Positions 1,074-3,181 of a DNA stretch of 64,000 nt are shown in pieces. Every line of letters starts with the position of its first letter. The stretch's first letter is position 1. Under the pieces are notes generated by a model. That model worked only from the letters and a program-made list of their open reading frames with translations, ran no database searches and was not told where the DNA came from. Source of the stretch: Escherichia coli (GTDB lineage: Bacteria > Pseudomonadota > Gammaproteobacteria > Enterobacterales > Enterobacteriaceae); NCBI RefSeq assembly GCF_030013205.1, contig NZ_CP122648.1; one strand, 5' to 3'. A program made the translations under genes and the position numbers.

Positions 1074-1670
1074 TTATCCAATCGGTAGTTGCGGCCATTG
1101 AATATCTGGGGCTAAACCAATATCAACTTTCTCTAACATATGAATATAATTAATCCAATCTATTAGTTTTAATCGGTCCCCATCGGAGATGATTCCTAAT
1201 TGCAACTCTGTCTGCCAAAGATTAATAGCTTCATTTGCTGACACTAGGCGAGACTTTCTTTCCTGTTCCGCATTTCTTAATAAACTTTTTCTCATCATTT
1301 CATGGTTAAACCGCCATTCGATTCCATCCCATTCGTCATAAGGAGATAATGGAACTAGTGGTGTAACATTGCTCGGATAATCACCAATTACTGTAATAAT
1401 TTCTGGCTCCCCTGTTTCGATGTTATATACTGTATCACCACGATGATCTGGGATATATTCCCACGACCTCAGATCCTCTGTCCGACAAATAATATATCCC
1501 TTTCTATTTTCGCCTGGAGGATCAATACACGAGTTAGCAGGTATCCCCACACCTGCGGAAAGATATTCAGAGGAGGATGATAAATATTCTCTGGAATCAT
1601 AATCATAGTTATAAACAGTAATCATCCCTGCTGATATAGCAATTAAGTTGCTGTCTAATTCTGCTTTCAT
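1074..1670 (-). CDS. Phage tail fibre assembly protein (P2 gpG-like)
   Basis: 198 aa ORF immediately downstream of and translationally coupled to the tail fibre gene; C-terminal region resembles the tail fibre assembly chaperone family. Confidence 0.8.
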   Translation of the reverse strand: MKAELDSNLIAISAGMITVYNYDYDSREYLSSSSEYLSAGVGIPANSCIDPPGENRKGYIICRTEDLRSWEYIPDHRGDTVYNIETGEPEIITVIGDYPSNVTPLVPLSPYDEWDGIEWRFNHEMMRKSLLRNAEQERKSRLVSANEAINLWQTELQLGIISDGDRLKLIDWINYIHMLEKVDIGLAPDIQWPQLPIG

Positions 1671-3181
1671 TATGCCGCCCTTACAATATAATTGAACGCT
1701 ACGTTGCGGGGTCTACTCATAGCTATATATCCGATACGGTCAGTGTTTGTTACTCCGTTCGCAGCGATCGCCCTGACTGTGTAAAGATTGGACGGCAAGT
1801 CTGTTGGTTTTTTATCATATCCCCACACAGAATAGTCCACCAGGTTGTTAATTGTTAAAGGGGTGATTGTTGACTCGCCATCATCCCCAACGACTAGCGA
1901 CCCACGCTGCTCACTTAACAGAGTTCGCCCCTCATCCACACCTCGTCCGTCATCCCAGCCACGAATAAACTCGCCGCGTAAATCAGGTAATTTTAGAGAA
2001 GGGTAAACTTTTGCCAGTTGTGGGTATTCTTCGGCATAGAATGCTGCACCATTACATTTCAACCATCCTTCAGGTGGTGTTTCTATTGGCCACGGAACAG
2101 GCACTCCCACCGGGAGTGCGGACCCAGTTCCCAAACCGAGGTTATTTAAAAACGCAGCTACATCAGCAATATCTGAACCGTTCTTACTGATTTCCATTTT
2201 ACCTGACATGGTTTTAGTAATCGTCGTGGCAAAGTTCGGATCATTCCCCAGCGCCGCCGCCAATTCGTTCAGTGTATCCAGTGCCGCAGGTGCAGAACCC
2301 ACTATTGCTGCAATCGCCGATTTCACAAAAGCCGTGGTGGCAATCTGTGTATTGTTGACCGACTGTGCCGCAGTAGGTGCGGTTGGCGTTCCGGTGAGTG
2401 CCGGACTCGACAGCGGCGCTTTCAGTGCCAGCGCATTGTTAATGGTGGTACTGAATTTCGGATCATTGTTAATGGCTGCGGCTATTTCTTTCAGCGTGTC
2501 CAGCGTGGCTGGCGCACCATTAATAAGAGCCGTCAGAGCCGCCTGAACAAACGCGGTGGTCGCAATCTGCGTGGTGTTATTCCCTGCGGCTGGCGTTGGC
2601 GCTTTGGGTGTCCCGGTAAGCGTCGGACTTTCTTTGGGTGCATACTGTGAATGCGGGTCCGGTGCGGCAAGATGTTTTGCCATCTGATCATCCACGTACA
2701 CCTTCAACTCCAGTGCTTTGTCATCCACATACTTGCGGGTTGCCAGCACGACGGCAGGGTCGATTTTCAGTGTGATATTGTCCGTGCTGCTGGTAATCAG
2801 CACCATGCGCACGGTCTGGGTGCGCCCGCTGCCTTCAGCCAGTTGTGGCTTATAGCTTTCCGGGCAGTTGCCCACGGCAATCAATGCCCCGGACTCATCA
2901 AACAAGCCCACTTCACGTATCCACCAACCGCCCTCGTTTTCAGGGATCACCTGTTCGGCAATAATCTGGCTGCTGTTCTGCGGGTCGATATAGAGCATAT
3001 TCAGCGCAGCCCGGCGTTTCTCATTTACCAGTGCAGTCTGCTTTGAGTCTGGCGTTGGCAATACTCCGCCGCCATCGCCGACCGCCATATGGGTAATTTT
3101 TAGCGGCACACCGAGCGCGGCGGCGCTGGCAAGTTTCGCCGCGCCAATATCCGTCAGCAGGGTATAAAATTTTGTGCTCAT
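1670..3181 (-). CDS. Phage tail fibre protein (P2 gpH-like)
   Basis: 503 aa ORF with the conserved P2-type tail fibre N-terminus (MSTKFYTLLTDIGAAKLA...) and internal NTTQIATTAFV repeat units. Confidence 0.85.
   Translation of the reverse strand: MSTKFYTLLTDIGAAKLASAAALGVPLKITHMAVGDGGGVLPTPDSKQTALVNEKRRAALNMLYIDPQNSSQIIAEQVIPENEGGWWIREVGLFDESGALIAVGNCPESYKPQLAEGSGRTQTVRMVLITSSTDNITLKIDPAVVLATRKYVDDKALELKVYVDDQMAKHLAAPDPHSQYAPKESPTLTGTPKAPTPAAGNNTTQIATTAFVQAALTALINGAPATLDTLKEIAAAINNDPKFSTTINNALALKAPLSSPALTGTPTAPTAAQSVNNTQIATTAFVKSAIAAIVGSAPAALDTLNELAAALGNDPNFATTITKTMSGKMEISKNGSDIADVAAFLNNLGLGTGSALPVGVPVPWPIETPPEGWLKCNGAAFYAEEYPQLAKVYPSLKLPDLRGEFIRGWDDGRGVDEGRTLLSEQRGSLVVGDDGESTITPLTINNLVDYSVWGYDKKPTDLPSNLYTVRAIAANGVTNTDRIGYIAMSRPRNVAFNYIVRAA

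Follow-up and report, generated by a model that had tools for sequence, protein, structure and literature searches.

An intact P2 gpH-class mosaic tail-fibre gene with an old internal repeat inside a decayed Escherichia coli prophage remnant

Our analysis covered a 64-kb window (the whole stretch of 64,000 nt from the E. coli contig NZ_CP122648.1), in which 11.6 kb between ybjL and rcdA are the remnant of a P2-like prophage. Within this remnant, an intact ORF of 503 aa at 1670..3181 encodes a tail fibre; the earlier note had given this extent correctly, but the reading strand needs correcting to minus. Directly 3’ of the fibre gene, and also on the minus strand, lies the gene for a 198-aa tail fibre assembly chaperone (Tfa, 1074..1670), whose start codon overlaps the fibre stop codon at 1670. 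Tfa matches PF02413 (Caudo_TAP; E 3e-28, 98.9 bits vs a cut-off of 22.1) and PHROG 105, confirming the downstream chaperone that had been proposed. A terminator-like hairpin with an 11-bp stem (1007..1031, minus strand; a consensus match only) stands between Tfa and a convergent acyltransferase-3 family gene (PF01757; 9..1001, plus strand), a moron of low GC (0.31–0.35) that is cut by the window start. At the other end of the fibre gene, the baseplate gene gpI is a pseudogene (3178..3745, minus strand; labelled ‘frameshifted’ in RefSeq), with two overlapping partial ORFs matching PF09684 and a 38-nt deletion near 3485, seen against the intact prophage L004.

The fibre belongs firmly to the P2 gpH class, the Peduoviridae baseplate tail-fibre type. 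In a Pfam scan its aa 1–150 match the full PF12571 profile (E 8e-65, 217.8 bits vs a curated cut-off of 23) and aa 359–406 match PF07484, Collar (50.9 bits vs a cut-off of 24), while PHROG 327 matches over the full length (E 2e-198). RefSeq annotates the protein as WP_063085604.1, ‘phage tail-collar fiber domain-containing protein’. Pfam matches of the neighbouring ORFs, together with the RefSeq annotation, give the gene order V-W-J-I-H-Tfa, which is also found in the intact prophages L004 and L006. The tail-fibre identity claimed earlier is thus borne out by domains, family and synteny alike. We infer a trimeric architecture for the fibre.

The N-terminal domain (aa 1–155; 2717..3181, minus strand) contains the PF12571 match and would attach the fibre to the gpI/gpJ baseplate. 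It is 93–100% identical in 14 of 14 relatives compared, and many E. coli genomes match the fibre in this domain only, at 95–97% DNA identity. Farther along comes a shaft of two 74-aa units, both on the minus strand and delimited by self-alignment: unit 1 at aa 181–254 (APKESPTLTGTPKAPTPAAGNNTTQIATTAFV...LDTLKEIAAAINNDPKFSTTINNALALK; 2420..2641) and unit 2 at aa 255–328 (2198..2419). The best internal self-alignment pairs aa 181–247 with aa 255–321, a shift of exactly 74 aa (222 nt), with a BLOSUM62 local score of 221 vs 36.6 ± 5.7 (maximum 58) in 300 shuffles. In register over 74 aa, the units share 59.5% protein identity and 59.9% DNA identity; at offset 222, 133 of 222 bases match, against at most 87 of 222 at any other in-frame offset in the gene. 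An internal tandem repeat had been noticed before, and it is real, as is the count of two copies; the proposed length of ~60 aa, however, falls short of the true period of 74 aa, and the DNA segments pointed out at 2220–2340 and 2400–2530 are related but only roughly in register with the true units. A repeat search on the DNA found pieces spaced by 222 nt (2316–2356 with 2538–2578, and 2373–2407 with 2595–2629). Tandem Repeats Finder, run on 1600–3300, reported no repeat, the two copies having diverged too far in DNA; only protein comparison or short DNA seeds reveal the repeat.

In the Pfam scan, the units gave no match to PF03406 (Phage_fiber_2 repeat) at E <= 0.01. Recognition of the 74-aa unit comes only from PHROG fibre families and the PDB chains 9d93 and 9k09, with aa 279–330, in the unit 2 region, matching the gp4 collar fibre of 9d93 by sequence. 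Among 120 relatives the repeat copy number is 2, 3 or 4. In two relatives (P0004 and P0005) the middle unit consists of a unit-2 N-half followed by a unit-1 C-half; an out-of-register (unequal) crossover at the shared NNTQIATTAFV core yields such three-unit fibres, and the repeats thus act as recombination substrates themselves.

Beyond the shaft, identity among relatives defines a variable neck (aa 329–355; 2117..2197, minus strand), which is 96% identical to that of one relative, P0007, and 26–48% identical to the others, except for the near-identical P0002. The tip (aa 356–503) is, judging from profile alignments, a collar domain of the T4 gp37/gp12 type. A profile built from our alignment of relatives (A1) matched the PDB entries 9cuy (E 8e-30), 2xgf (E 5e-28) and the gp12 chains (E 1e-5). 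The first conserved part of the domain (aa 356–415, LPVGVPVPWP...DLRGEFIRGWDDGRGVD; 1937..2116, minus strand) contains the PF07484 match, has nearly invariant columns in A1 and can be aligned with 2xgf (T4 gp37 tip) and 9cuy (phiTE short tail fibre). The C-terminal return strand (aa 471–503, …RPRNVAFNYIVRAA; 1673..1771, minus strand) aligns with the C-terminal ends of gp37 and of the phiTE fibre, with R164, I171, V172 and R173 invariant or near-invariant in A1. These two conserved halves flank a hypervariable insert (aa 416–470; 1772..1936, minus strand), which is 22–38% identical in most relatives, 93% identical in P0003, and stands, in the profile alignment, where gp37 has its needle and head. 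The insert has no HxH motif, and the His-rich needle and head region is a deletion in the alignment to 2xgf; the insert is probably the receptor-contact region. The last ~176 aa reach only about 50–57% identity to phage-collection records, the best match being at about 55%. The collar module itself occurs in 9973 cluster representatives of 84 to 1667 aa. An AlphaFold2 monomer of aa 329–503 (from a 64-sequence alignment) was poor, with a mean pLDDT of 58 and less than 50 over the last 64 residues.

Comparison of the modules with their relatives shows that the fibre gene is a recombinational mosaic, as the earlier note had suspected when it described a conserved N-terminus and a possibly mosaic distal part. 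In the N-terminal domain and repeats, the fibre agrees with many E. coli prophage fibres at 89–100% identity. The neck matches P0007 (96%) and not P0003 (41%), while the two segments of aa 416–503 match P0003 (93 and 88%) and not P0007 (31 and 45%), so that neck and tip assort independently among relatives. In a survey of 5426 complete E. coli genomes, megablast matches break at window positions ~2717, ~2220 and ~1937. Sliding DNA identity to L004 runs at 92–99%, drops to 62–77% over 2270–2001, recovers to 91–98% and then falls to 43–69%; GC content steps down 0.57 → 0.47 → 0.39 → 0.32. The tip is ~90% identical to that of L004, but Tfa only 48% (N-terminal domain 64%, C-terminal part 34%), and tip and Tfa do not co-vary strictly.

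A recent exchange can be placed more finely by comparison with L006, the closest intact prophage, which sits at the same chromosomal site. A maximum chi-square break point puts a recombination junction at 2375 (minus strand), in codon 269, inside unit 2 and just 5’ of its NNTQIATTAFV motif. On the 5’ side of 2375 there are 120 substitutions in 2826 nt (4.25%), on the 3’ side 2 in 2374 (0.084%; Fisher p 1e-29), and the near-identical block (window 1–2374) includes Tfa, 100% identical between the two, and the acyltransferase gene. Elsewhere, Tfa identity does not exceed 57% among 5.8 billion proteins, or 54% among phage-collection records. The distal end and Tfa are present in 17 of the 5426 genomes; as far as complete E. 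coli genomes go, this rare allele occurs solely in a pig ETEC/O139 lineage, plus one intact prophage. Through homologous exchange in the conserved parts (the N-terminal domain and the motifs of repeats and collar), a common proximal part has been joined to a rare distal cassette consisting of codons 270–503, Tfa and the adjoining acyltransferase moron.

Set against known systems, the fibre resembles P2 gpH (NC_001895) in its late-operon position (V-W-J-I-H-G), its homologous N-terminal domain and one 74-aa unit (SPALTGTPT.PTA...NNTQIA.TAFV...LN.LNELAAALGNDPNFATT), with 52% identity over aa 1–328 and a Tfa-family chaperone gene 3’ of the fibre gene. Unlike our fibre, P2 gpH is 669 aa long, has only one 74-aa unit, of which unit 2 here is the counterpart, and carries two copies of another repeat (…QLSSATNSTSETLAATPKAVK…) where unit 1 stands here. 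The C-terminal 340 aa of P2 gpH have no relation to the collar tip, the BLASTP alignment ending at aa 328 of 503, and Tfa is only 24% identical to P2 gpG. This non-colinear C-terminus marks a sub-class and does not exclude the fibre from the gpH class. Domain-wise alignment to characterised fibres, which had been suggested as a check, does not contradict mosaicism: 186 K aligns over aa 1–276 (42%), similarity to Mu S is not meaningful (25% over 103 aa, E 8e-4), and among P2 gpH, 186 K and Mu S we found no full-length colinear match. The family of this gene is the PHROG 327 ‘phage tail-collar fibre’ class of P2-like prophages and phages of Enterobacteriaceae (Escherichia phage 500465-1, pro483, Klebsiella phages Kp4845-2 and KP12), whose members are 79–80% identical overall and have ~503–515 aa with PF12571, two 74-aa units and then PF07484; one difference here is that neck and tip alleles are combined otherwise.

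With the T4 gp37 tip (2XGF), the gp12 collar (1OCY, 1PDI, 5IV5) and phiTE (9CUY), the fibre has in common the PxGxxxPWP...P.GW..C.G...YP.L...LPD.RG.F.RG motif and the C-terminal N.AF.YI.R motif, while the rest of the protein is unrelated. Moreover, gp37 has a long His-rich needle and head between the collar halves, in place of the ~55-aa insert here, and it relies on gp38/gp57A and not on a Tfa-family chaperone (PMC9608196). The Mu S/U and S’/U’ systems likewise pair a fibre gene with a Tfa-family chaperone gene 3’ of it. Over its C-terminal ~65 aa, the Tfa here shows 35% identity to Mu U’ (E 1e-11), and the logic of a modular Tfa, in which the N-terminal domain binds the fibre and the C-terminal domain is conserved (PMC9608196), is common to both. 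Unlike in Mu, there is no G-segment and no invertase here, and Mu-type identity was rejected for the fibre itself, given the lack of meaningful similarity to Mu S. The hypervariable regions described for P88 and pro147 (PMC5285337) belong to a ~750-aa P2-gpH-type tip and not to the collar type, and the key residues there therefore do not transfer to this fibre.

Taken together, we read the locus as a P2 gpH-class mosaic fibre of exchangeable modules with an old repeat, inside a decayed prophage remnant (probability roughly 0.88). One could instead take the two units for a recent tandem DNA duplication, by slippage or assembly artefact, with no conserved architecture, as the exactly in-frame 222-nt spacing of two adjoining copies might suggest. 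This is very improbable, and codon positions refute it: identity between the units is 68/82/30% at first, second and third positions (third, 29.7%, near saturation), which, with DNA identity below 60%, indicates an old duplication kept by protein-level selection. Furthermore, both units are present and individually conserved in nearly all of the 120 relatives, each being 89–97% identical to the corresponding unit and 55–65% to the other one; unit 2 has more in common with the single P2 gpH unit (76%) than with unit 1 (59%); and at least 15 independent complete genomes carry the sequence at 100% identity. The neck, being a module boundary, also calls to mind a switchable fibre of the Mu/P1/e14 type, in which a site-specific invertase exchanges the C-terminal part at a neck crossover site, and the annotation of 186 K places a ‘Mu-like inversion crossover site’ at the corresponding point of the neck (FVQNIGLK vs FLNNLGLG here). 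We give this next to no chance, since the best match to gix or the 186 site is 15/26, equal to other chance matches when gene and whole window are compared, and there is neither a Gin/Cin/Pin-type invertase gene nor an inverted fibre/Tfa cassette downstream, where the acyltransferase gene comes next; the dissimilarity to Mu S points the same way.

A further question is whether the fibre and Tfa are still used, whether by an active phage or tailocin or in the role of a domesticated surface/adhesion protein, and would thus be a live determinant of host range or competition. Both ORFs are intact amid decayed neighbours, dN/dS against L006 is low (0.05–0.10), the late-gene activator ogr is kept beside the remnant, and the remnant is fixed in the pig ETEC/O139 lineage. 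Nevertheless, we regard continued use as quite unlikely. The remnant annotation lists D, R and cII as partial (D truncated) and I as frameshifted, with no Q–L head genes, FI, FII, E, T or U, and no sheath, tube or tape-measure genes are found in the 11.6 kb; nor is there a second fibre or tail cluster within the 64-kb window. The low dN/dS is largely divergence built up while both lineages were active phages, and the carriers (17 of 17 at least 99% identical here, and the 15 listed 100% identical over 4.5 kb) are so alike that they give no within-lineage selection signal. The remnant is unable to make tails or heads, and the idea that the tail block is still functional is not borne out. The description of the fibre with its chaperone as the host-range determinant consequently stands for its type and fails in practice in this strain, where the tail block is dead. 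The mosaic fibre is at most a reservoir allele for incoming P2-like phages; in lambda, experiments have shown that phages gain tail-fibre DNA from defective prophages (PMC3945230).

It is tempting to go one step further and view the 2.37-kb block (codons 270–503, Tfa and the acyltransferase-3 moron) as a mobile cassette for recognising and then masking the receptor, which would move between P2-like backbones as one unit, with the acyltransferase altering the LPS/O-antigen bound by the tip and the shaft repeat acting as a recombination landing pad. We find this rather doubtful: L004 has a tip ~90% identical, yet no acyltransferase gene, which weakens the functional coupling of the acyltransferase to the tip type.

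The fibre is an ordinary member of known P2-family fibre biology, and our understanding of tail fibres is unchanged by it; to that extent the locus matters little beyond bookkeeping. At the same time, it shows at base resolution how tail fibres of P2-like prophages evolve by modules: one junction lies within a conserved shaft repeat, neck and tip assort independently, and repeats are gained by unequal crossover. Its rare tip and Tfa allele could help engineers of P2-type particles or tailocins who seek new host ranges.

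The fibre gene (window 3181→1670, minus strand, 503 aa), already named tail-collar fibre protein by RefSeq, carries PF12571 over aa 1-150 (Pfam, E 8e-65) and the PF07484 tail-collar domain over aa 359-406 (Pfam), and PHROG 327 ('tail protein') covers it end to end (E 2e-198). Dozens more fibre PHROGs match only its N-terminus, only its repeats or only its C-terminus, a sign of modularity. The assembly chaperone that an earlier note had placed downstream is indeed there: the gene at 1670→1074 (minus strand), whose start overlaps the fibre stop codon, encodes a Caudo_TAP (Tfa) chaperone, and a strong hairpin at 1007-1031 separates it from a convergent acyltransferase gene. 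The C-terminal 175 aa of the fibre are a very widespread module, found at E ≤ 1e-3 in 9973 cluster representatives, with matching proteins of 84 to 1667 aa. A collar profile built from 64 of these representatives hit 9cuy, a short tail fibre of phiTE, at E 8e-30 and 2xgf, the receptor-binding tip of T4 gp37, at E 5e-28, with a weaker hit to T4 gp12. In gp37 a long His-rich needle and head sit between the collar halves (aa 356-415 and 471-503 here), whereas the fibre has at that place only an insert of about 55 aa (aa 416-470), without the HxH motif. Judged by topology from the gp37 alignment, this insert is the likeliest candidate for the receptor-contact region; the AlphaFold2 monomer model of aa 329-503 was poor (pLDDT 58).

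Domain-wise alignment against P2, 186 and Mu, the comparison named in the earlier note, follows the fibre only part of the way. P2 gpH (669 aa) stops at aa 328 (aa 1-328, 52% identity) and 186 K at aa 276 (aa 1-276, 42%), while Mu S showed no similarity of note (25% identity across 103 aa, E 8e-4). P2 gpH has a single copy of a 74-aa unit that occurs twice here, 76% identical to the second of the two, and at the place of the first both P2 and 186 have another repeat, present twice (…QLSSATNSTSETLAATPKAVK…). The fibre really belongs to the 'tail-collar fibre' class, whose members, ~503-515 aa long and ~80% identical overall, are common in enterobacterial P2-like prophages. Within a 50,697-genome phage collection the last 176 aa of the fibre had no match above ~55-57%, and Tfa none above 54%.

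The two tandem copies previously described as a ~60-aa repeat are real, with a period of 74 aa. When the fibre is aligned to itself, the top internal match sets aa 181-247 against aa 255-321 at an offset of exactly 74 aa, scoring 221 against 36.6 ± 5.7 for shuffled halves, and no other in-frame offset in the fibre came near this register. Over the full 74 aa, unit 1 (aa 181-254, window 2420-2641, minus strand) and unit 2 (aa 255-328, window 2198-2419, minus strand) share 59.5% protein and 59.9% DNA identity; DNA seeds spaced 222 were found between them, and TRF reported no tandem repeat at the fibre. The three codon positions match at 68%, 82% and 30%, the third being effectively randomised; the duplication is old and has been maintained through selection on the protein. 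Recent slippage as the origin of the repeat is ruled out by the same low third-position identity. Each unit joins the motifs SPxLTGxPxAPT…NxTQIATTAFV and APAxLDTLxExAxAxxNDPxFxTT, which are widespread in phage fibres and match fibres of solved structure from phages that are not related: aa 179-215 align with 9k09 (the cyanopodophage A4 fibre) and aa 279-330 with 9d93 (a gp4 collar fibre).

A conserved N-terminus with a mosaic distal part had also been proposed, and four independent lines of evidence agree with it: segment identities, break points and the comparisons with the prophage loci L004 and L006. Against 14 relatives, the N-terminus is 93-100% and the repeats 86-99% identical, the neck (aa 329-355) falls to 26-48% in all but P0007 (96%) and P0002, which is near-identical, the first half of the collar lies at 60-88% outside P0002, and the insert and C-end (aa 471-503) lie at 21-55% except in P0003 (93% and 88%) and, less markedly, P0006 (75% and 76%). 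Neck and tip, each matching other relatives, therefore come from different partners. Megablast against 5426 complete E. coli genomes stopped recurrently at three places, where the N-domain (window ~2717), unit 2 (~2220) and the first half of the collar (~1937) end; some part of the region was matched in 1403 of these genomes, the distal 264 nt plus Tfa in only 17. GC content steps in parallel: the baseplate genes and the proximal fibre lie at 0.55-0.60, the distal fibre at 0.46-0.48, Tfa at 0.37-0.42 and the acyltransferase at 0.31-0.35.

P0003 is encoded by L004, an intact P2-like prophage, whose DNA identity to the window is 92-99% in V and onward into the shaft, drops to 62-77% over 2270-2001, returns to 91-98% over 2000-1731 and ends at 43-69% through Tfa. 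The two Tfa proteins are 48% identical overall (N-terminal domain 64%, aa 77-130 43%, C-terminal part 34%); in Mu and Pam3 it is through its N-terminal domain that Tfa binds the fibre (PMC9608196). The closest relative is L006, a P2-like prophage that appears complete and also sits at ybjL; its fibre is 98% and its Tfa 100% identical, and it shares the acyltransferase. Substitutions against it number 120/2826 (4.25%) from window 5200 to 2375 and 2/2374 (0.084%) from 2374 to the window start, with the maximum chi-square break point at 2375 (Fisher p 1e-29), in codon 269, within unit 2 and just 5' of NNTQIATTAFV. This drop in divergence shows that fibre codons 270-503, Tfa and the acyltransferase were recently exchanged between two diverged backbones. 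The 5' part of gpV holds another mosaic patch (window 5259-5568; 47/310, or 15%, substitutions against L006, the rest of the aligned region having about 2%, 122/5258), where identity to L004 also goes down to 74-80% over 5420-5241.

Among the 120 best relatives of the fibre, 112 carry two units, five carry three and one carries four. The middle unit of the three-unit P0004 and P0005 is chimeric: its unit-2-type N-half and unit-1-type C-half meet at the common TQIATTAFV core, which is just what an out-of-register crossover of unit 2 with unit 1 should yield; P0019 has a second, independent junction close to the unit start. Each such event lengthens the shaft by exactly 74 aa. The four units of P0001 (768 aa, Salmonella Typhi, named 'Gifsy-2 prophage tail fiber protein') are spaced 74, 190 and 74, units 3 and 4 duplicating units 1 and 2 (u2 = u4 at 100%), which is either a large internal duplication or an assembly/annotation fusion.

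The acyltransferase-3 family gene (9-1001, plus strand, extending beyond the left edge of the window) lies where P2 has its Z/fun moron, with Tfa on one side and the former sheath gene on the other. It belongs to the exchanged block, shows no differences from L006, and may be a lysogenic-conversion gene that modifies LPS or O-antigen. That tip, Tfa and acyltransferase work as a recognise-and-mask cassette seems unlikely; L004, with a similar tip and no acyltransferase, counts against tight coupling. Between gpS and gpV, on the strand opposite to the late genes, lies an FRG-domain gene (5653-6588, plus strand, 311 aa, PHROG 4962 of unknown function, GC 0.35-0.39), and L006 has there an unrelated 305-aa gene with no Pfam match; this gives the S-V junction the look of a hot spot for morons or cargo, possibly for a defence gene.

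Window 1-19603 equals the E. coli K_EC180 chromosome except for three single-base homopolymer indels. In the RefSeq annotation of that chromosome, the fibre lies in an 11.6-kb P2-like prophage remnant in the ybjL-rcdA interval, ordered ogr, D (truncated), acyltransferase (opposite strand), Tfa, fibre, gpI (frameshifted), J, W, V, FRG-domain gene (opposite strand), S, R (truncated), cII (truncated), a small ORF at the cox/apl position, CI and integrase, with no head, sheath, tube, tape-measure or gpU genes. Relative to L004, the gpI gene (3178-3745, minus strand) has a 38-nt deletion near 3485, which breaks it into two overlapping ORFs. Because of these missing genes and this deletion the tail block is not functional, and the fibre, which the earlier note took for the host-range determinant, cannot contribute to a particle in the present genome. 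At ~7045-7621 (minus strand) the 3' end of gpR is joined directly to a truncated 186-type cII, by a deletion that took out the entire replication, lysis and head region; L006 homology stops at 7226. The remaining window, ordinary chromosome from bssR to dinG, holds no second fibre or Tfa. At least 15 complete genomes have the 4.5 kb round the fibre at 100% identity; the 15 carriers listed are without exception pig ETEC or O139:H1 strains and have the gpI deletion.

One extra G in a G-run at 8265 leaves the CI-type repressor ORF (7989-8564, plus strand, 191 aa) intact here, RefSeq giving it as frameshifted in K_EC180, and its cause may lie in the sequencing or in a true difference of phase; the other two homopolymer differences are single A's at 12429 and 17372. 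In this lineage rimO and dgcI are separated by an inserted RelE/ParE toxin and HTH antitoxin pair (loci L001 and L008; K_EC180 record 3284588-3285293, ~window 21.6-22.3 kb).

An intact phage of this type, L006 for example, would have a fibre of three chains, with the conserved N-domain anchoring it on the baseplate, the two 74-aa units making up the shaft and the collar domain displaying the hypervariable insert towards the cell surface. Tfa would initiate trimerisation at the fibre C-terminus, a role that is established for Tfa proteins (North et al. 2019, summarised in PMC9608196). Host range evolves via homologous exchange in conserved stretches flanking variable modules. For P2 this was reportedly found by Haggård-Ljungquist et al. 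in 1992. For lambda and defective prophages, exchange has been demonstrated by experiment (PMC3945230).

That the fibre gene is intact is most simply explained by young decay; its low dN/dS against L006 (0.05-0.10) is mostly a record of live-phage history. A role as donor allele for incoming P2-like phages is plausible. The repeat motifs, collar domain, Tfa partnership and fibre mosaicism are textbook knowledge; specific here are the rare tip-plus-Tfa allele and the unusually sharp junction inside the shaft repeat.
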